From: Sulfurospirillaceae bacterium
GTDB taxonomy: Bacteria; Campylobacterota; Campylobacteria; Campylobacterales; Sulfurospirillaceae
Length of the DNA stretch: 64,000 nucleotides
Assembly: GCA_033723415.1 (NCBI GenBank)
Contig: JAWVXD010000003.1
Span: 96,001 to 160,000, forward strand
Reading direction: 5' to 3'
A model generated the notes under the pieces. The model searched no databases, was not told the origin of the DNA, and saw nothing but the letters and a program-made list of their open reading frames with translations. Shown here piece after piece: positions 3,956-13,713 of the stretch. The position numbers and the translations under genes are program-made. Each line of letters opens with the position of its first letter. The stretch's first letter is position 1.

Positions 3956-3987
3956 GTAAAAGTGTGTGAATAATCACACACTTTTAC
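3956..3987. terminator. Probable bidirectional terminator between convergent metK and M20 genes
   Basis: Perfect 14-bp inverted repeat GTAAAAGTGTGTGA-ataa-TCACACACTTTTAC. Confidence 0.8.
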
Positions 3988-3991
3988 TTGA

Positions 3992-5149
3992 TTATTTAAT
4001 CTTTGTTTCAAAAACTCTAAGCAGTGAGACGGTTAAGATTATAAATCTCTCAATAATAGAATCTTTTTCGATAAATTCATTTCTACTGTGATCATCTGCT
4101 CCTATTGGACCAAAACCATCAAGTACCGGAGTATTTACATTTGCTATTGCATTTGCATCAGAAACACCTCCTCGAAATTCTCTCCCGAATTTTACATTAT
4201 ATCCTTCTATGATATTTTTAAGATCTTCGTAAAAGGAGAGATTGAGTGTCGATTCTTCCATGCTCCCTCTACCGCTGGTAATCTCTAACTTACTTGTGAC
4301 ACCGTCAACAAAGTTCATAGAATCAATCTCGGCAAGTTTTTGTTTTATATTTTTTTCATCATCACTATTTGTAAAGCGAATATCTATAGTTGCTTTTGCA
4401 TAGTCACTTATAGTGTTCGGTCCTACTCCTCCTGAAATCTTGCCGACATTAGCAGATATTTGTGTGTTTGTATCATTAATATTTTCGATTTCAATTATCT
4501 TGTGTGCAAGTTCTAAAATCGCACTTTTTTTCCCTGCAATTTTAAAGGCCGCATGTCCGGCTTCTCCAAAACATTCTAGAGAAGCTCCGATTTTGCCTTT
4601 TCTTCCTGTTACTATTTCACCGTTATGTCCAGCTCCCTCTAAAACAAAAGCTGCAGCTGATCTTTTTGCCTCTGTTTCAATATAAGGCTTTGAGAAAGGT
4701 GAACCGATCTCTTCGTCAGAATTAAAGAAAAAAGTTACCGGTATCTTTTTTAGTAGATTTTTATGTTCCAAAAACTTCAAAGTCATAATACCGATAAGAA
4801 GACCGCCCTTCATATCAAATACACCAGGACCCTTTATGATACCATCACTCTCTGTATAATCTAAAAAACCGGCATCTTGAGGAAATACAGTATCCATATG
4901 TCCACATAGCATTATCTGTGTGTTTTTAGTTTTGACAGCAGGAGTACTGGCTCTAAGTAGATTCCCGTACGTATCACTTTCGATAGTCTGATAATCAAAA
5001 GAAGTTCCAAGATAAGACTTTATCGTATCTAGTACTTTGTCTATACCTGCTTTATTGTAACTATAACTGTTGATCTCGATAATCTTTTTAAAGAGCATGA
5101 AGAATTCATCTTCATGCTCACTAAAGTATTGTTTTAGCTCATTTTCCAT
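3992..5149 (-). CDS. M20-family metallopeptidase (glutamate carboxypeptidase G2-like)
   Basis: GHMDTVF, GPGVFDMKGG, SDEEIGS, GVSDAN and DGFGPIG..DH motifs. Confidence 0.9.
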   Translation of the reverse strand: MENELKQYFSEHEDEFFMLFKKIIEINSYSYNKAGIDKVLDTIKSYLGTSFDYQTIESDTYGNLLRASTPAVKTKNTQIMLCGHMDTVFPQDAGFLDYTESDGIIKGPGVFDMKGGLLIGIMTLKFLEHKNLLKKIPVTFFFNSDEEIGSPFSKPYIETEAKRSAAAFVLEGAGHNGEIVTGRKGKIGASLECFGEAGHAAFKIAGKKSAILELAHKIIEIENINDTNTQISANVGKISGGVGPNTISDYAKATIDIRFTNSDDEKNIKQKLAEIDSMNFVDGVTSKLEITSGRGSMEESTLNLSFYEDLKNIIEGYNVKFGREFRGGVSDANAIANVNTPVLDGFGPIGADDHSRNEFIEKDSIIERFIILTVSLLRVFETKIK

Positions 5150-5158
5150 GTATGAGTC

Positions 5159-6742
5159 TTATCTATATTTTTCAAATGCAAATGGTTGATTATACTCTTC
5201 CATCGTCATGTCTGGATAATCTACTTCTTCTCCGCTCCACGGTTTTTTCAGTTTTAGATTTCCATTTTCTGCATGTACTACGTTGTCTCTGTGAAGAGGG
5301 ATCTTACCGCCGGCAGTTGCTAGGTATCTAGGTATCGCATCACCAGAGATATTTCCATACATACTCTCAACTATATCTCTACCGACAGAAACAGGTACTC
5401 TCATGTGTGCAAACTCAGGATTTCTAAAGCTACAGTTGAACAAGTAGTAAGGTCTGATGTAAGACTCTTGCAATGCTTCACATAGTTTCCACATTTTGTT
5501 TCTTGTGTCGTTAATACCTCTAAGGAATACTGCTTGATTTAAGATAGCACTTGTCACTTTGCTAAGCTTTCTAAATGCTTCATGTGATTCAGGTGTCAAC
5601 TCTTGTGCTGAGTTGATCTGCGTTACAAATCTAAGTGGTTTGATATCGTTACTTTTTTCACAGATCTCCAAAAATTTATCATCGATTCTTTGTGGTGTCA
5701 TGATAGGGATTCTGCTTCCCAATCTTTTGATCTTGACATGAGGAATCTTGTCTAATTCATTTAATAAGTATTCGATTTTTTTATTTGATAAAGCCAGTGC
5801 ATCACCGCCTGTAATAAGAACGTCTCTGATATTTTCATCATTTCTTATGTAATTTAGTGCTTCTTCATAAGTATTATTTGAACTAACCCAGTCTTTATCC
5901 GATATATGTGCAATTCTCAAACAGTGTGTACAAAACATAGCACACATATTTGTAGCTTTTATAGTTAAGACTCTTGGATAAAATTGGTCTATCAATCTTG
6001 CAGGTGAGTGATCACTTGCAACAGGTTCAAGTTCTATACCATTGTTATCGACCATATCTCCGGTAGGTACACTTTGGAGTAAAATAGGGTCATTTATTTG
6101 GTTTGGCATTATTAAACTTGCGTAGTATGGAGAGATTCTCATCCTAAAAACTTTAGATACTCTTTGGATATCTTCTATAAGTTTTTGAGGAATATCTATG
6201 ATGCTCGCAAGTTGTTCAGGAGACGTTATAGCATATTTTATTTGTCCTGCATAAGAATCCCAGACTTCATCTGTCATTCCTAGTTTCTTCTGTATTTTTC
6301 TTCTGTTCTCTAACATTTGTTCATGTAAGTCAAAACCGCTTGGTGCGTCATCTTTGTTATTATCCAAGTAATCTTTGACTCTTGCGTTTGCTTTTTCAAC
6401 TATCGGCAGTGCTGAATATACTCTACCTCCAACTGACACGCGGTGTTCATCTGTATTTTTATGTTTCATTGCCATCAAATACAGTTCATCTTTGTCAATA
6501 CCGATGTCTTCAGGAGTCGCACCGAATTTTTCTCTTATAGTTTTTAGTTTATTGAATAGTTGAACCATCGGATTGGTTAATTTTTGTGAAGTTTTACTGA
6601 TTTCCAGCCACTCTTTTACTTCGTCAATATCTTTTTGACTTACTTCTTTTTTATCGTTTGAAGGTTCATATAAAAGCTCGAATAATTTTATATCAAATTT
6701 ATCAAGTTTCTCTAGATCCTCATTGCTAACAGCACATTCCAT
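5159..6742 (-). CDS. KamA-family radical SAM/PLP aminomutase, glutamate 2,3-aminomutase-like, with N-terminal extension
   Basis: CAMFCTHC (CxxxCxxC), DVLITGGD, NQAVFLRGIND, RPYY, and GGKIP with the PLP lysine. Confidence 0.88.
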   Translation of the reverse strand: MECAVSNEDLEKLDKFDIKLFELLYEPSNDKKEVSQKDIDEVKEWLEISKTSQKLTNPMVQLFNKLKTIREKFGATPEDIGIDKDELYLMAMKHKNTDEHRVSVGGRVYSALPIVEKANARVKDYLDNNKDDAPSGFDLHEQMLENRRKIQKKLGMTDEVWDSYAGQIKYAITSPEQLASIIDIPQKLIEDIQRVSKVFRMRISPYYASLIMPNQINDPILLQSVPTGDMVDNNGIELEPVASDHSPARLIDQFYPRVLTIKATNMCAMFCTHCLRIAHISDKDWVSSNNTYEEALNYIRNDENIRDVLITGGDALALSNKKIEYLLNELDKIPHVKIKRLGSRIPIMTPQRIDDKFLEICEKSNDIKPLRFVTQINSAQELTPESHEAFRKLSKVTSAILNQAVFLRGINDTRNKMWKLCEALQESYIRPYYLFNCSFRNPEFAHMRVPVSVGRDIVESMYGNISGDAIPRYLATAGGKIPLHRDNVVHAENGNLKLKKPWSGEEVDYPDMTMEEYNQPFAFEKYR

Positions 6743-6792: not shown

Positions 6793-8193
6793 TTAATTAG
6801 GGCAATCTATTGATCTATCAATCGTAGATGAGATCATTTCTTTGCCAATAGCTATACCGTGATTTATATCTTTAAAATTTTTGCCGAGTGCTACGACTCG
6901 TGCTAAAAATGAACCTTTGTTTACAATAAAATTTTGTCCTACGTGTTCTAGTATCATATGCTCCTTATCTATTTGGTTTTCCATTATTTTTTTAAATATT
7001 TCTAATTCATCACTTCTATGTACAAGGCCGCTATTTGTTTTTGATGTAGCTTCAAGTTTATAGTTATATGTTTCCCAAAAAATATCTTGATTGTTAAAAT
7101 CAGGTTCTATCATGTTTGGGGCTTTTTTATTTTGTGTTACGGCATAAAACTCAATCTCCGGCAAATTTGGAGCATTTTCTGGAAGTATGCAGTTTAATGT
7201 GCAGCAAAATTCCATAGTAGTACCTTGTTTCCTGGGATTTGTTTCTATAAAAAACACTTCATCTTTATCTGTTACGATAAAATCGCATCCAAAGATACCT
7301 CTATATCCAAGTTTTGCCATTTTTTTACCTATTTCTCTTGTTTGTCTTATAATTTCTTCTTTCACACTTAAAGAGACACGTGAAGGGAAAGCTGAACCCT
7401 TGAATTTTGTACCGTCTATTGTCTGATCTGCGATTCCTGCAACGTATATATCTTCTTCATTTATCGCTACGCAAAGAGTTGTCGGATCACATACGTGAGG
7501 TATGAATTTAGTTATTAAAAATTGGTCATCTTTATTTTTGCCAAATTTTTGAGTTATACTATCAATATCTTTAGCGATCAAGCTGTTTACTCCGGCTGCG
7601 CTTTTTTCAAGTGAGATAAAAATACCGTTGTTATCTTCAAAAGATTTGAGTAGCAAAGCCGATTTTTTTGTCAATTCTTCAAATCCGTTTGCAATTTCAT
7701 AAGGAGCCATAGGGACTATATTAGAAAAGATTTCATAAAGAGCAATTTTATTGCTTAATAACGATACTATCTTTTCATCCGGACCTATTACTCTGATTCC
7801 ACTTTTTTGATCCAATGTCATATGACGATTGGACTCGAACATATAAATAAAAAGTTCTTTTTGCTTTCTCAAAATTGTGTCTGTTAGATCATTTATGTAT
7901 TCGCTGTTGGAAACATCTCGCATAAAAAGATCATTGCTCTTTCTTTTATTCTCTCTATCTTTGATTTTATTGACGACTATTATGTTTTCGAAATTATAAT
8001 TGTCAAATACATCCGGAACTATCGTTATACACTCTATATTTGCTTTATCTATATGGTAAATCTTTGAAATTGCCTCTTTGGCAAAATTGCCTATTCCAAA
8101 TGCCTTTATCTCTGTTATAAACAAAAAATAATATTTATTTTCATCATATGTAAAATTTGTAAACCTAATATCGCTATGCATTGGTTTGCTCAT
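6793..8193 (-). CDS. ATP-grasp ligase
   Basis: C-terminal ATP-grasp signature GYRGIFGCDF...FIETNPR; also SNKIAL and SAAGVNS loop. Confidence 0.82.
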   Translation of the reverse strand: MSKPMHSDIRFTNFTYDENKYYFLFITEIKAFGIGNFAKEAISKIYHIDKANIECITIVPDVFDNYNFENIIVVNKIKDRENKRKSNDLFMRDVSNSEYINDLTDTILRKQKELFIYMFESNRHMTLDQKSGIRVIGPDEKIVSLLSNKIALYEIFSNIVPMAPYEIANGFEELTKKSALLLKSFEDNNGIFISLEKSAAGVNSLIAKDIDSITQKFGKNKDDQFLITKFIPHVCDPTTLCVAINEEDIYVAGIADQTIDGTKFKGSAFPSRVSLSVKEEIIRQTREIGKKMAKLGYRGIFGCDFIVTDKDEVFFIETNPRKQGTTMEFCCTLNCILPENAPNLPEIEFYAVTQNKKAPNMIEPDFNNQDIFWETYNYKLEATSKTNSGLVHRSDELEIFKKIMENQIDKEHMILEHVGQNFIVNKGSFLARVVALGKNFKDINHGIAIGKEMISSTIDRSIDCPN

Positions 8194-8843
8194 TGTTTTT
8201 CTATCTCCCTTAACAATATGATTTTTGTTCCTGTCTCAAAATAATGCTCTCTAATCACTTCTTCTATCTGTTTCTTATTCCTGGATTTTACTGCATCAAC
8301 AATCTTTTGATGCCTATTTGTGATCTCATCTAAGGTATATAACTTTGTCCAATTTCTAAAAAAAAGTATTTGAGATAATTTGTTTATTCTTTCCAGTGTT
8401 TCAAGAAAGACAAAGTTTTTTGCATATTTGAGATAATGTTTATGAAATAGTTCACCTATTTTTACTACTTTTTTTGAGTCATTTACCGATTTGCTCATTA
8501 GAAAGACATAATGCTGTAAAAGGTCCATATCTTCTTGCGTAGCATAAAGAGCAAAGTTTGATGCAAGAAAACCTTCAACGACACCTTTTGCTTCATATGT
8601 GTCAAAAATATCTTTTGAAGTTATCTCTTTTACAAAAACGCCTTTTCTTTCCACATGTTCTAATATTCCGATTGATACAAGTTGTGCAAGAGCTTCTCTT
8701 ACAGGAGCACGACTTACTTTTAATTTATTGGCTAGATGTGCTTCTCTTATTTGCATTTTCTTTTTATATTCTTCATTTACAATGGCATCATATACATAGT
8801 CTACGATCTTATCTCGAAGTGGTTTTTTGTGTAAATCTGACAT
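8190..8843 (-). CDS. GntR-family (FCD/VanR-type) transcriptional regulator
   Basis: HTH REAHLANKLKVSRAPVREAL, and FCD-domain histidines (FHKHY, RHQKIV, REHY). Confidence 0.92.
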   Translation of the reverse strand: MSDLHKKPLRDKIVDYVYDAIVNEEYKKKMQIREAHLANKLKVSRAPVREALAQLVSIGILEHVERKGVFVKEITSKDIFDTYEAKGVVEGFLASNFALYATQEDMDLLQHYVFLMSKSVNDSKKVVKIGELFHKHYLKYAKNFVFLETLERINKLSQILFFRNWTKLYTLDEITNRHQKIVDAVKSRNKKQIEEVIREHYFETGTKIILLREIEKQ

Positions 8844-8856
8844 CGCTATTTTTCCT

Positions 8857-8897
8857 TATAATTGTCGACAATATTTATTGAATTGTCGACAATTATA
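8857..8897. promoter_or_regulatory. Tandem palindromic operator (2x ATTGTCGACAAT), probable GntR autoregulatory site
   Basis: Palindromes at 8861-8872 and 8882-8893, centres 21 bp apart, immediately upstream of the GntR start. Confidence 0.75.
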
Positions 8898-9125: not shown

Positions 9126-10091
9126 TTGAAATTGAGGAAATCTTTACTTATAGCGGCCAGTGTTTTGGTTGCAATACCGGCAGTGGTAAGTGCTACGCAA
9201 TTTATTACGATTGGTACAGGCGGCGTTACAGGTGTTTATTATCCAACTGGGGGTGCAATTTGCCGAATGGTAGACAAATCAAAAGCAAAGACACATATTA
9301 GATGTGCAGTCCAATCTACTGCAGGTTCTGTCTTCAATGTGAATTCTGTTAAATCAGGTGATCTAGATTTTGGTATCGCTCAAAGTGATGTGGTATATCA
9401 AGCTTACCATGGACAGGGAATATTCAAAGGAAAAGCGCATAAAAACTTGAGAACTCTTATGACGATTTATCCTGAATTGCTCACTTTAGTTGTTAGAAAA
9501 GACTCAGGTATTAAAAATATAAAAGATATTGAAGGGAAAAGAATAAATATAGGAAATCCTGGAAGTGGGCAAAGAAATTCAACAGATCTACTTTTTAAAG
9601 AAACATCTCTTAGCAAAAGTGGATTAAAAGAAGCAAAAGAGTTAAAAGCTGCAGAAATGCCTGATGCTCTTAAAGATGGTCATATAGACGGTTATTTCTA
9701 TATGGTAGGTCATCCAACTTCAAATATTAAAGATGCGGCAAATTCAGTTGATATAGATTTAATTAATATTACGTCTAAGACTCTACCTGGATTGACAAAA
9801 TTCTTGAAAAAACATCCTTATTATGCAATGGGAACTATTCCAAAAGATATGTATAAAGGTGTTGATCATGATACAAGAACTTTCGGTGTTAAAGCAACAT
9901 TGGTAACAAATGCTAAAACAAGCGATAAAGTTGTTTTGGCGGTTATGAAAGCTGTACTTGATAATTTTGCAGCATTTAAAAAACTTCACCCAGCATATAA
10001 AAATATAACAAAGAAAAGTTTACTTGAAGGGTTGGGAGCTCCTTTGCATCCAGCAGCTAAAGCATATTTCAAAAAACTTGGTATTTTGTAA
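9126..10091 (+). CDS. TAXI-family TRAP transporter solute-binding protein
   Basis: Signal peptide followed by ITIGTGGVTGVYYPTGG, STAGSVFN, GNPGSG and PLHPAA motifs. Confidence 0.93.
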   Translation: MKLRKSLLIAASVLVAIPAVVSATQFITIGTGGVTGVYYPTGGAICRMVDKSKAKTHIRCAVQSTAGSVFNVNSVKSGDLDFGIAQSDVVYQAYHGQGIFKGKAHKNLRTLMTIYPELLTLVVRKDSGIKNIKDIEGKRINIGNPGSGQRNSTDLLFKETSLSKSGLKEAKELKAAEMPDALKDGHIDGYFYMVGHPTSNIKDAANSVDIDLINITSKTLPGLTKFLKKHPYYAMGTIPKDMYKGVDHDTRTFGVKATLVTNAKTSDKVVLAVMKAVLDNFAAFKKLHPAYKNITKKSLLEGLGAPLHPAAKAYFKKLGIL

Positions 10092-10111
10092 AAATACTTT
10101 TGATTCTTCAA

Positions 10112-10136
10112 ATTGCCCTGCCTTTAGCGGGGCAAT
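10112..10136 (+). terminator. Intercistronic stem-loop / partial terminator
   Basis: ATTGCCCTGC-cttta-GCGGGGCAAT after the TAXI gene; no strong U tract. Confidence 0.55.
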
Positions 10137-10211
10137 AAATTAAGGATATCTCTAAAATACAGGAAGGGAATATTTTATAGATGTCCTAAAGATAATCTAC
10201 AAGGATAAAAC

Positions 10212-12380
10212 TTGAAAGAGAAAATTGATAAGGATGAATATTTAGAAGATATTCAAGATAAAAACAAAAAAGAATTCGATGAACTATCTGAGCTTGATGA
10301 AAGTAGTATCCCAAGTGAAGATCATATGACTGCCGAAGAGAAATTGATAAGTGAGCTTGAGGGACAAAGGGTATTTCAAAAAGGTACATATAAATATAAA
10401 TTTATAACAATAGTTGCATTTACTTGGTCATTGTTTCAGCTATTTATAGTTATGAATCCAATCAATAGTGTATTTTTGCGCTCAATTCACTTGGCTTTTG
10501 CCGTTGTTTTGGCATTTACACTTTATCCGATCATAAAAAAACCACATTTAAGAAATACAATAACTTGGTATGATTTGTTATTTGCAGCTATCGGTGTTGC
10601 TGCTGTATTATATCAATCTTATGAATATAGTGCGTTGGCTATGCGTTCAGGCTCTTGGACACAAACGGATGTAGTCATGGGAATGTTGGCAGTAGTTGTG
10701 GTATTGGAGACTGCAAGAAGAGTTATGGGTTTACCGCTATCTGTTGTTGCCATAGTGTTTTTGGTGTATGATTATTTTGGGCCGTATATGCCTGATATAA
10801 TTGCACATAAAGCCGCGAATTTCTTTCAGCTGGCTGGACAAATGTCTTTAACTTCTGAAGGGATTTATGGTGTACCTCTAGGAGTCAGTGCTTCCTATGT
10901 CTTTTTATTTGTTCTTTTTGGTTCCCTTCTAGATCGTGCAGGAGGGGGCGAATATTTTATAAAGCTTGCATATACTTTATTGGGAAGATATGATGGAGGC
11001 CCTGCAAAAGCTTCTGTTGCAGCCTCAGGTCTTATGGGTATGATCTCAGGTTCTTCTATAGCAAATACTGTTACGGTTGGAACCTTCACTATCCCTCTTA
11101 TGAAAAGATTGGGATTTTCATCAAATAAAGCAGCAGCTGTTGAAGTATCAGCATCTGTTAACGGTCAACTCATGCCTCCTATTATGGGTGCTGCAGCATT
11201 TATTATGGCGGAATTTTTAGGACTTAGCTATAGAGATGTTGTCTTTGCAGCATTTCTTCCTGCTTTTGTTTGTTATTTTTCTCTATTTTATATCGTTCAT
11301 TTAGAAGCAAAAAAAGCCGGTATAAAAGGGGAAGATCCATCCAAACTGGGACGAGCATGGCCTATTTTTATAAAAGGGCTACACTATTTAGTTCCTATAT
11401 TTTTTCTTATGTATACGCTAATAGTACTTAGACAATCGGCTCAAAGTGCTGCATTTAACGCAATCATATTTATGATGCTGATCATGGTTTTACAAAAGCC
11501 ACTAAGAGCAATATTAAATAAAGAAAAAATAACACGTAGTATTTTGATGGAAGGTTTTACAGACATCGGTCAAGGTATGATAAACGGTGCAAAAGGCATG
11601 ATACCTATAGCTGCCGCAACAGCCGTTGCAGGTATTATTGTGGGTTCTGTTACATTGACAGGTATCGGGTTGATCTTGGTTGATGTTATAGATCAGTTAT
11701 CACATGGATATATTATTCTGGTCTTGCTATTGACTGCTATCACTTCGTTGATATTAGGAATGGGGCTTCCAACGACTGCAAACTATATCGTTATGGCTTC
11801 TTTGACGGCTCCTGTTATAATGCAATTATCAGCTCAAAACGGATATGTCATCCCTATGCTTGCCGCTCATATGTTTGTATTTTATTTTGGTATTTTAGCA
11901 GATGATACGCCACCTGTGGGATTAGCGGCATATGCCGCTGCAGGGATAGCAAAGGCAGATCCTGTCAAAACAGGTTTGCAGGGATTCTTTTATGACATAA
12001 GAACAGGACTTTTACCGTTTATGTTCTTTTTTAATAACAAACTTCTGATGATAGATCATGTCGACAAATTAGATCCTGATGATTCTACAAAGTGGGTATG
12101 GATATCAAATCCTTTGGAAATAGGAGCTATTTTTCTTGCCGCCCTTCTTGGAATGTTTGCTTTTACATCAGCAACGCAAGGATGGATGCTTACCAAGATT
12201 AGCACAGTAGAAAGATTACTTCTTATATCTGTCATACCTTTTGCAATGCAGCCTCAACTTATGGTAAATCATCTGGATTTACCAAATGAATATGTCAGTT
12301 ATATTGTCGCTCTATTGATTTTTGTAGCTGTGTATATGATCCAAAAAGTAAAAGTTAAAAAAGAAGTTATTGCAAGTTGA
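10212..12380 (+). CDS. TRAP transporter fused 4TM/12TM permease (TAXI-type)
   Basis: Highly hydrophobic; GGPAKASV, SGSSIANTV, GQLMPPIMGAAAF, GMGLPTTANY and DDTPPV motifs. Confidence 0.93.
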   Translation: MKEKIDKDEYLEDIQDKNKKEFDELSELDESSIPSEDHMTAEEKLISELEGQRVFQKGTYKYKFITIVAFTWSLFQLFIVMNPINSVFLRSIHLAFAVVLAFTLYPIIKKPHLRNTITWYDLLFAAIGVAAVLYQSYEYSALAMRSGSWTQTDVVMGMLAVVVVLETARRVMGLPLSVVAIVFLVYDYFGPYMPDIIAHKAANFFQLAGQMSLTSEGIYGVPLGVSASYVFLFVLFGSLLDRAGGGEYFIKLAYTLLGRYDGGPAKASVAASGLMGMISGSSIANTVTVGTFTIPLMKRLGFSSNKAAAVEVSASVNGQLMPPIMGAAAFIMAEFLGLSYRDVVFAAFLPAFVCYFSLFYIVHLEAKKAGIKGEDPSKLGRAWPIFIKGLHYLVPIFFLMYTLIVLRQSAQSAAFNAIIFMMLIMVLQKPLRAILNKEKITRSILMEGFTDIGQGMINGAKGMIPIAAATAVAGIIVGSVTLTGIGLILVDVIDQLSHGYIILVLLLTAITSLILGMGLPTTANYIVMASLTAPVIMQLSAQNGYVIPMLAAHMFVFYFGILADDTPPVGLAAYAAAGIAKADPVKTGLQGFFYDIRTGLLPFMFFFNNKLLMIDHVDKLDPDDSTKWVWISNPLEIGAIFLAALLGMFAFTSATQGWMLTKISTVERLLLISVIPFAMQPQLMVNHLDLPNEYVSYIVALLIFVAVYMIQKVKVKKEVIAS

Positions 12381-12441: not shown

Positions 12442-13713
12442 TTATATACCGATCGCCTCGCTTATTCCTCCGTTTGCACTGTGATATATGATTGTATGAT
12501 ACTTCCTAGAATAAAATTTTAAAAGAAGATTTTGTAAAGTCGGTTCAGTAGAAGGAGTGAACCAGGCATTGTTACTGATCGCGACCATTCGTTTTGGGTT
12601 ATTTTCGAAGAGTTCGTCCGTTGTGGCTTCAAAACATATAGCATTTCTAAATTTTTCCCCTTTGATATTAAAATCATGCGGTTTTTTTGCATTCGCAAAA
12701 TCACTTGAAGAGTTAAAAAATATACGATTGATAAACTTACCTAAGAATGAAGGTAAAGGAATCTCTTCACCAAAAGGGACAAGTACGACTTTGTTCGCTA
12801 TCTCTACATTTCCGTTTTGAAAAAAGTAAGTAGAGTTATATATTTTGTCATCCTTATACGACAACGCACCTGTTATAATGTCTATCCTTTTTGAAAGTGA
12901 TTCAAGTTTTACGAGTTCCTCAGGTGACATATCCAGATATATCGGGAAAGCCGTTTCCGGCAAAATGATCAAATCAAATTGGTTTTTTATAGCTTGTTCT
13001 ATTTGATAATAATTATTTTCCAAAATCTCGTTTTCATACTTGGGATCCCATTTGTCCTTTTGGTTAAGATGCATAGATACGGTTTTTATACGCAGAGTAT
13101 TATTATCAGCTTTGTGTGGCTGATTATATGTTGCTAAAAGTAAAAAAATCAAAGATAAAACTTTGTACCATCGTTTGAGCTTTACAAGCAGTAATATTGC
13201 GATCAAAAATGATATATATGTCATCATCAAGGGATTGAAATAAGAGTTCGACAAAGATAGTTCAAGTTTTAGCCAATTGAAACCAAAAGGATGAATAAAA
13301 CTTATCGCAAAAACTAGAAAAGTTTTGATATAGATATTGTTCTCAAAAGCTCCAACAATCCTAAAAATTATCCCGTATATGAGACCTATGCCTAAGATCA
13401 CAATAGGAATCAGATAAGCTAAATGATAGTAAATAAAACTAAAAGAAATCCAATAAAACCATAAGATCCCAATAAAAAAACCTATCCAAAAAAATTCATA
13501 ACGATTGCTTTTTAGAAGTAGATAAAATCCTAATATCGCGATTAGCGAATAGGCGGGTTTAGACTCGAAATTCAAATATGTTAAAAAAATAAAAATTGAT
13601 AAACAAAAAGCTACGGCAAAGCCTTTTATTATATAAGAAGTGGTAAAATGACCACTTACAAAATTTTTATTAAAGGATTTACATGCAAGGCGGTACAAGT
13701 ATGTTAACTTCAT
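12442..13713 (-). CDS. lnt: Apolipoprotein N-acyltransferase
   Basis: TM N-terminus; nitrilase-fold triad motifs LPETAFP, NKVVLVPFGE and AICFE. Exact start uncertain (ATG 13713 chosen). Confidence 0.9.
   Translation of the reverse strand: MKLTYLYRLACKSFNKNFVSGHFTTSYIIKGFAVAFCLSIFIFLTYLNFESKPAYSLIAILGFYLLLKSNRYEFFWIGFFIGILWFYWISFSFIYYHLAYLIPIVILGIGLIYGIIFRIVGAFENNIYIKTFLVFAISFIHPFGFNWLKLELSLSNSYFNPLMMTYISFLIAILLLVKLKRWYKVLSLIFLLLATYNQPHKADNNTLRIKTVSMHLNQKDKWDPKYENEILENNYYQIEQAIKNQFDLIILPETAFPIYLDMSPEELVKLESLSKRIDIITGALSYKDDKIYNSTYFFQNGNVEIANKVVLVPFGEEIPLPSFLGKFINRIFFNSSSDFANAKKPHDFNIKGEKFRNAICFEATTDELFENNPKRMVAISNNAWFTPSTEPTLQNLLLKFYSRKYHTIIYHSANGGISEAIGI

Follow-up and report, generated by a model that had tools for sequence, protein, structure and literature searches.

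A KamA-family 2,3-aminomutase clade with an altered substrate pocket, encoded with an ATP-grasp ligase and an amidohydrolase, that may act on amide-blocked glutamate

The DNA stretch analysed here (the window) comprises 64,000 nucleotides, positions 96,001 to 160,000 of contig JAWVXD010000003.1, from a Sulfurospirillaceae bacterium of the phylum Campylobacterota (assembly GCA_033723415.1). At 5159..6742, its minus strand encodes a 527-residue protein predicted to be a radical-SAM, pyridoxal phosphate (PLP)-dependent 2,3-aminomutase of the KamA family, hereafter the mutase, which belongs to a group that we call the FNCS clade. An AAGGA ribosome-binding-like site precedes its ATG, and the gene is part of a single minus-strand unit in which a GntR/FCD transcription regulator (8190..8843; PF00392 and PF07729) overlaps by 4 nt the start of a predicted ATP-grasp amide ligase of an uncharacterised family (6793..8193; 466 residues; PF02655), followed after 50 nt by the mutase and, after a 9-nt gap, by an M20 metallo-amidohydrolase resembling carboxypeptidase G2 (CPG2; 3992..5149; 385 residues; profile match to 1cg2). 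Our results suggest, with a probability of roughly one half, that the mutase acts on an amide-blocked glutamate, converting gamma-Glu-X to or from beta-Glu-X.

The initial annotation had described an aminomutase with intact cofactor motifs but neither the lysine- nor the glutamate-specific pocket. The cofactor motifs are present: the CxxxCxxC [4Fe-4S] motif (C267/C271/C274) is followed, two residues past its third Cys, by Arg276 (5915..5944, minus strand), and the PLP lysine K480, within IPRYLATAGGKIP, has its codon at 5305-5303, where it had been placed. The NCBIfam models cover lysine, glutamate and arginine mutases and EpmB, and the only cut-off that the mutase passes is that of the broad KamA model TIGR00238 (243.6 against 199.2 bits). 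It falls under those of glutamate 2,3-aminomutase (EAM; TIGR04368, 337 against 650 bits), lysine 2,3-aminomutase (LAM; TIGR03820, 271 against 525), arginine mutase (TIGR04468, 244 against 600), EpmB (TIGR03821, 193 against 369) and AblA_like_2 (TIGR03822, 202 against 396), although EAM is still the best-scoring specific family. By these tests, the mutase is a KamA-family member and is not a LAM, EAM, arginine mutase or EpmB; among the known types, it is predicted to work most like EAM. The alignment-based AlphaFold model is confident (pLDDT 93.6, pTM 0.91) and retrieves LAM 2a5h as the top Foldseek match (E 6e-30, TM 0.77 by target). No Cys follows K480 in the mutase, whereas two LAM references have three to six there. 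The missing C-terminal Zn-Cys cluster is therefore correct as an absence, but it does not distinguish the mutase, because the region is equally missing from EAM references.

The pocket columns were paired from a HMMER alignment to the Clostridium subterminale LAM (2a5h_A) by residue counting. In this alignment, LAM D293, D330, R134 and K337 correspond to S438, T476, R276 and K480, respectively. The sequences used as EAM proxies (P0130, 693 bits; L026, 690 bits) and as LAM proxies (P0136 and P0139), all over their cut-offs, have Lys/Asn and Asp/Asp, respectively, at the 293/330 columns; the mutase has neither pair. The pocket described from the letters alone thus lacks both sets of specific residues, with Thr, and not Ala, at the 330 column. 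Ser438 lies in the FNCS motif within YLFNCSF (5429..5440, minus strand), and the segment PRYLATAGGK (5303..5332, minus strand) holds Arg472, Thr476, Lys480 and the Gly-rich loop, which had been noted as short and is three residues shorter than in LAM 2a5h_A. Conservation was counted over the best 120 of 2144 matches, query included; each of F435-N-C-S438, P471-R472, T476, K262, R440 and K480 is found in 120/120. Among these, Lys262 (5957..5959, minus strand), at the column of LAM Leu120 and an Asn in EAM, is a candidate substitute for the lost carboxylate-binding Lys. From their roles in the LAM structure, we take Arg276 to be the alpha-carboxylate contact and Lys480 the PLP lysine. The D330 column is an active-site specificity position, since the D331G variant of the Bacillus subtilis enzyme gains alanine mutase activity (PMC9850924).

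The second distinctive feature of the mutase is an N-terminal helical extension (residues 1-103; 6434..6742, minus strand), which is real and family-specific. Its predicted helices (15-24, 36-51, 57-73 and 84-97; block pLDDT 92-98 in the alignment-based model) lead into a long helix (104-132), the second half of which matches the EAM N-terminus. The EAM profile match begins at residue 117, corresponding to profile position 12, giving about 105 extra residues and bearing out the extra domain of about 100 residues annotated ahead of an EAM-like start. The extension ends in the motif K-H-x3-D-E-H-x-V-x2-G-G-R (residues 93-107; 6422..6466, minus strand), conserved in 113-119/120 homologs per position, with H94, D98, H100 and G105-G-R107 each in 119/120. 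A fold search with these helices, the sole use made of a single-sequence AlphaFold model (pLDDT 40), retrieved generic helical bundles only (best Z 6.6), so that the suggested fold check gave no specific relative, and an Atlas feature search with residues 10-125 gave one match at 0.75, below the bar. Outside the first 120 homologs, the extension profile matches only clade fragments, P0126 and P0127 among the collected proteins. The latter, a homolog of 512 residues, has the N-terminal domain but neither CxxxCxxC nor a Lys aligned with the PLP lysine, and may be a broken gene or a paralog without activity. Compared with a family of KamA proteins of about 600 residues, represented by a 5-sequence profile, the extension gave an hhalign probability of 1.0-1.6%, too low to indicate homology. 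A role as a mere dock for the ligase is weakened by the retention of H-x3-DEH in 10/10 loci without an adjacent ligase, a distant ligase having been searched for only in L017.

The best 120 of the 2144 homologs are 57-100% identical to the mutase and about 525 residues long, and those with names belong mostly to Campylobacterota, Desulfobacterota and Deferribacter. Cultured carriers are Desulfoprunum benzoelyticum, Deferribacter spp. and Desulfosediminicola, and the named hosts are largely marine or saline anaerobes. The distribution is patchy, with the family in 2/401 genomes of the host phylum and 4/301 of the Desulfoprunum phylum; in the host genome, the mutase is the sole KamA-family gene. 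Among 72,556 plasmid records, there were 22 matches, none covering 80%, and hence no member of the family; no RNA holder of the family appears among the matches listed. Family-type genes also occur in archaeal metagenome-assembled genomes (MAGs) of small size, from Micrarchaeota (L017:5947-7282) and Nanoarchaeota (P0126), and the L017 gene lies close to apparent Fe-S assembly genes, as read from open reading frame starts. Judged from its sequence, this is a real, conserved and uncharacterised family.

The relationships of the FNCS clade were reconstructed in a quick tree of 57 rows and in two careful trees with 30 and 22 of these rows, from which long-branched or redundant rows were dropped. 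In the 30-row tree (LG+G4), the FNCS clade plus P0126 is sister to a second group, the FNCK clade (89/95), inside the EAM radiation (99/99), and the same arrangement is recovered in the 22-row mixture-model tree (97/95 and 98/96); LAM lies on a separate branch (99/99 and 98/96, respectively). The stem of the FNCS clade is long in both (0.9-1.4 changes per column), and its descent from the EAM lineage is therefore likely but not settled. Nesting within the characterised EAM or LAM clades, together with their activity, had been named as an observation that would speak against a distinct enzyme: two of the three trees do place the mutase inside the EAM radiation, and the quick tree does not. The FNCK clade (P0121-P0125, L020-L025, L028, L134:1891-4659, L135:5759-8707), which groups with two EAMs in the quick tree, is a natural comparison enzyme. 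It shares with the mutase the FNC motif, the Thr at the 330 column, a downstream M20 gene and an upstream ATP-grasp gene, either of the same family as our ligase (sometimes fused) or Ddl-like. In contrast, it keeps the EAM Lys, lacks the N-terminal extension, is about 425 residues long and, where scored, reaches 597-610 of the 650 bits of the EAM cut-off. Its ligase-mutase fusions are proteins of about 925 residues forming a 13-member cluster, and the five fusions found among the listed matches of a search for longer homologs all belong to it.

Compared with the known enzymes, the mutase is most similar to EAM (TIGR04368), the best-scoring specific model, with which it shares the N-terminal helix and PxG motif, the cofactor motifs, the missing C-terminal Cys region and, in 2/3 trees, a common radiation. 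It differs in having Ser/Thr for Lys/Asn, the new residues K262, R440 and R472, the loop shorter by three residues, the extra domain of about 105 residues, its tie to ligase and hydrolase genes and a score of 337/650 bits. With LAM (KamA/AblA; 2a5h; TIGR03820), it shares the fold, CxxxCxxC and the equivalents of Arg134 and Lys337, whereas both pocket Asp and the C-terminal Cys cluster are lost, the branches are separate and the score is 271/525 bits.

The genomic context was compared across 99 loci, namely 19 of 29 genome-contig loci (10 non-family loci were dropped) and 80 of 141 confirmed metagenome matches. An ATP-grasp ligase lies directly upstream of the mutase in 78 of the 88 loci that have 500 bp or more of flanking sequence (51/59 clusters at 90% identity). 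The gene directly downstream, counted in 87 loci, is M20 in 59, a GGCT-like gene in 10, an FGase in one and another gene in 17, three of which carry M20 a few genes further; the three hydrolase types together occupy 70/87 loci (47/59 clusters at 90% identity), the GGCT-like and FGase queries having been drawn from the same loci in which they were counted. Different, unrelated folds thus appear to occupy this slot, and the known relatives of each cleave glutamyl amides. Conversely, the ligase family occurs in 6/301 genomes of the Desulfoprunum phylum, four times beside an FNCS mutase and twice beside, or fused to, an FNCK mutase, with M20 next in both of the latter. Among the ten loci without an adjacent ligase, seven carry peptide-ABC or amidohydrolase genes and four have GGT after M20, which fits the import of a ready-made conjugate; of the others, two have short flanks and one is an archaeal MAG. 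A TAXI/TRAP transporter pair is present in 31/99 loci (15/34 with long flanks), and a GntR regulator in 18/99.

Several loci carry further genes. A second KamA gene, of the family of about 600 residues mentioned above (FNTK pocket, Lys at the 262 column), adjoins the operon in L016:2016-3815, L020:8574-10370 and L022-L024. This family presumably resembles the methanogen type of glutamate mutase (Tunckanat 2022). Such a pairing of mutases would suggest that their substrates differ. In L094:8159-10567 and L095:8895-11348, a glutamine-synthetase-like gene and a 357-residue KamA protein whose pocket differs again (FYCE / IAT) lie between the mutase and M20. Genes resembling acyl-CoA synthetase and/or enoyl-CoA hydratase, identified by reading and not by scanning, lie beside the operon in L135:8834-11862, L069:2568-5498, L082 and L088 and hint at further breakdown via a CoA ester. 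A universal stress protein gene (about 164 residues; cluster in 22 loci) follows the TRAP permease in many loci of Desulfobacterota type, among them L015, L019, L033 and L034. Finally, L015 encodes a 1013-residue fusion of ligase and mutase that we discounted as the probable result of a frameshift error, since the near-identical L016 and L033 have separate genes and the M20 and TRAP genes of L015 are likewise broken.

In the window, two 12-bp palindromes ATTGTCGACAAT, 21 bp apart (8861-8872 and 8882-8893), lie upstream of the regulator and probably constitute the GntR operator. Their core TGTCGACA is found at most 400 nt upstream of GntR in 17/18 loci, and upstream of the ligase in 0/43 loci without GntR. 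The 2.43-Mb genome holds 11 copies of the core, nine outside the pair; the six inspected of these nine lie in or beside unrelated genes, giving no indication of a wider regulon. Divergent from the operon, on the plus strand, are a TAXI solute-binding protein (9126-10091; TIGR02122) and a fused TRAP permease (10212-12380; TIGR02123), together spanning 9126..12380. In 2/2 genomes of the same genus, the interval between metK and the gene at 12442 is only about 0.5 kb, so that the operon, its operator and TAXI-TRAP appear as an inserted block of 8.5 kb. Between metK and the M20 stop, a hairpin with a 14-bp stem (3956..3987), found by consensus scan only, is a probable bidirectional terminator. The host genome also encodes a second TAXI protein, 62% identical, as well as an ectoine synthase, GGT and PxpA.

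The partner proteins fall below every named-family cut-off and are thus treated as leads. In the M20 hydrolase, the 1cg2 profile scores 202 bits against 100 for the next non-CPG2 entry, with 174 against 349 bits on the CPG2 model NF004788. Its family keeps the CPG2 Arg of the 'RP' motif (R294) invariant, presumably a terminal-carboxylate contact as in CPG2. The GGCT-like proteins form a family of 165 residues barely seen by Pfam (L001:7587-8084 and nine similar loci; 237 homologs), some members of which are labelled gamma-glutamylcyclotransferase or ChaC by their source records. An M20 of the same family is encoded elsewhere in 3/5 GGCT-type genomes, so that GGCT is no proof of lost M20 activity, and PxpA is found in 5/5 of those tested. 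GGCT-fold enzymes such as BtrG and GGACT remove glutamyl handles. The nearest structures to the TAXI protein are 9oz4, 8s4j, 9ibo and 1us4, which we take to be glutamate binders. The nearest solved structure to the ligase is BesA, which couples an amino acid to L-Glu through the gamma-carboxyl of the latter; the glutamyl group then serves as a handle while a tailoring enzyme works on the non-glutamyl half (10.1101/2025.10.10.681649).

How these proteins could work together follows from what the mutase has kept. The retained Arg276 and Lys480 indicate a free alpha-amino acid end on the substrate, since in LAM chemistry the substrate gives its free alpha-amino group to PLP and its alpha-carboxylate to Arg. 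Descent from EAM points to a glutamyl skeleton, and the partner genes to a glutamyl amide. Only the glutamyl half of gamma-Glu-X has a free alpha-amine, which makes a linear route through ligase, mutase and hydrolase the simplest. In this ligate-isomerise-cleave route, the ATP-grasp enzyme would form a glutamyl amide with X, most likely an amino acid, the mutase would shift the free amino group by LAM-type chemistry (gamma-L-glutamyl-X <-> beta-glutamyl-X), and the hydrolase or cyclotransferase would release the product. Ser438 and Thr476 would open a larger, neutral distal pocket, while binding of X may fall to the new basic residues and to the H/D/E/R motif of the N-terminal extension. A ligase and a hydrolase under one repressor would constitute a futile cycle unless the mutase alters the compound between them. 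The substrate, the identity of X, the direction of flux and the role of the N-terminal domain are what we infer here. The earlier suggestion of a new substrate, possibly a glutamate derivative with a blocked gamma-carboxyl, gains from the likely EAM ancestry and from partners whose relatives act on glutamyl amides; the blocked gamma-carboxyl itself stands as the most likely reading only.

Several observations weigh against an amide-blocked substrate. The invariant basic residues K262, R440 and R472 could take over from the lost Lys, and further members of the KamA family, EAM-like ones included, likewise have Lys at the 262 column. The ligase-mutase-M20 layout does not depend on loss of the EAM Lys, since the FNCK clade combines this layout with that residue. 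Recruitment to a ligase operon is a single evolutionary event, which leaves the correlation at n=1. In the quick tree, the FNCS clade (100% support) stands beside a long-branched row and is not joined to EAM. The Micrarchaeota MAG of L017 has the mutase yet gives no ligase match in its 0.9 Mb, the genome being incomplete. The partners are distant from their named relatives: the ligase matches the BesA structure 8yi6 (E 3.5e-9 and 2.6e-10) along no more than about 100 residues and scores 29 against 750 bits on the BesA model NF042917, far under the cut-off. The Pfam matches of the GGCT-like family are weak (AIG2_2 in 6/10 members, best E 0.0011), a PDB profile search with it gave no GGCT and nothing relevant, and its assignment leans also on the source names and on a motif. 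Moreover, gamma-Glu-beta-Glu made from free beta-Glu would suit the same four hydrolase types.

The last point belongs to the main rival, a plain free-glutamate mutase with a rewired pocket, in which Lys262 and/or Arg472 replace the EAM Lys while the ligase builds a beta-Glu amide (e.g., gamma-Glu-beta-Glu, a storage form or osmolyte) that the hydrolase recycles; we regard this as a serious but less probable explanation. EAM is the best-scoring specific family and probably the ancestral state, the FNCK sister retains the Lys with identical partners, K262 is invariant and the host has no other KamA-family gene. Beta-glutamate also serves as an osmolyte, and Na+ riboswitches are associated with eam genes (PMC1224877, PMC9337991); the named hosts are largely marine or saline anaerobes. 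Nevertheless, an unchanged function fits poorly with the long stem (0.9-1.4 changes per column), the many fixed pocket changes and the EAM score of 337 against 650 bits. The co-expressed ligase and hydrolase would cycle futilely, the repressor, operator and importer resemble a utilisation module in a host that already has an ectoine synthase, and two Dethiobacteria EAM loci have no ligase or M20 neighbour.

A glutamine 2,3-aminomutase, in which X would be ammonia and the ligase would amidate beta-Glu or Glu to allow L-Gln <-> beta-Gln, a neutral osmolyte, seems improbable. Ser, Thr and Asn would suit a neutral carboxamide, a glutamine-synthetase-like gene follows the mutase in two loci, and beta-glutamine is known as an osmolyte that glutamine synthetase makes in Methanohalophilus (PMC1224877). 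However, it is not obvious why a small amide should call for an added domain and three further basic residues, and peptide ABC importers occur in ligase-less loci. The invariant R294 of M20, if its role is as we assume, points to a terminal carboxylate on X. Equally unlikely is a diamino acid that carries the glutamyl group only as a handle (e.g., side-chain gamma-glutamyl-lysine, -ornithine or -diaminobutyrate) and whose own amino group shifts. This reading would agree with the Bes tailoring enzyme, with the removal of such handles by GGCT-fold enzymes and with an acylated side-chain amine that would not need Asp293 and Asp330, but the ancestry is probably EAM, not LAM, and the solved structures closest to the TAXI-type importer are presumably glutamate binders.

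Within the preferred reading, isomerisation of gamma-Glu-X or beta-Glu-X, the direction of flux may be considered. The EAM equilibrium favours beta-Glu by about 16:1, so that a plain EAM would drain the glutamate pool and not scavenge. We therefore consider, tentatively and as the less probable case, a salvage in which TAXI imports beta-Glu and the ATP-driven module returns L-Glu. The ligase would join beta-Glu to an amino acid X as its carrier, the mutase would turn beta-Glu-X into gamma-L-Glu-X, and the hydrolase or GGCT would free L-Glu (or 5-oxoproline) and X, one ATP spent through the ligase/hydrolase pair driving the reaction uphill; loss of the carboxylate-binding Lys would keep free glutamate from short-circuiting it. 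Since cyclisation requires the amino group in the alpha position, a GGCT-like exit gene fits the beta-to-alpha direction. This direction is favoured by the control through a repressor and the presence of an importer, by the GGCT alternative and by the 16:1 equilibrium, while synthesis of a beta-glutamyl osmolyte would use the same mutase chemistry.

Gamma-glutamylation is known from the butirosin (BtrJ/BtrG) and Puu pathways, in which the handle is removed by a GGCT or a hydrolase. These pathways and that of BesA/BesE resemble our module in an ATP-dependent gamma-glutamylation followed by a tailoring step. In them, the glutamyl group is passive, whereas here it would itself be isomerised, by a radical mutase. 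To our knowledge, the substrates of the radical-SAM 2,3-aminomutases characterised so far are lysine, glutamate or arginine in free form. We found no literature on the FNCS clade or its operon, judging by titles and abstract starts and with most subscription papers outside the scope, and no description, in the literature searched, of the salvage route considered here for beta-glutamate turnover.

A designed carbon-fixation cycle needs a beta-to-alpha glutamate step (10.1101/2025.11.21.689712), which the salvage module, if true, would supply. In that case, the mutase would be a radical 2,3-aminomutase with a peptide-linked substrate, and the module would explain how beta-glutamate is recycled against its equilibrium. 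Altogether, the conservation of the clade, its altered pocket and the ligase and hydrolase dedicated to it point to a new class of substrate and to a beta-glutamyl metabolite, so far undescribed, of anaerobes from marine and saline settings.

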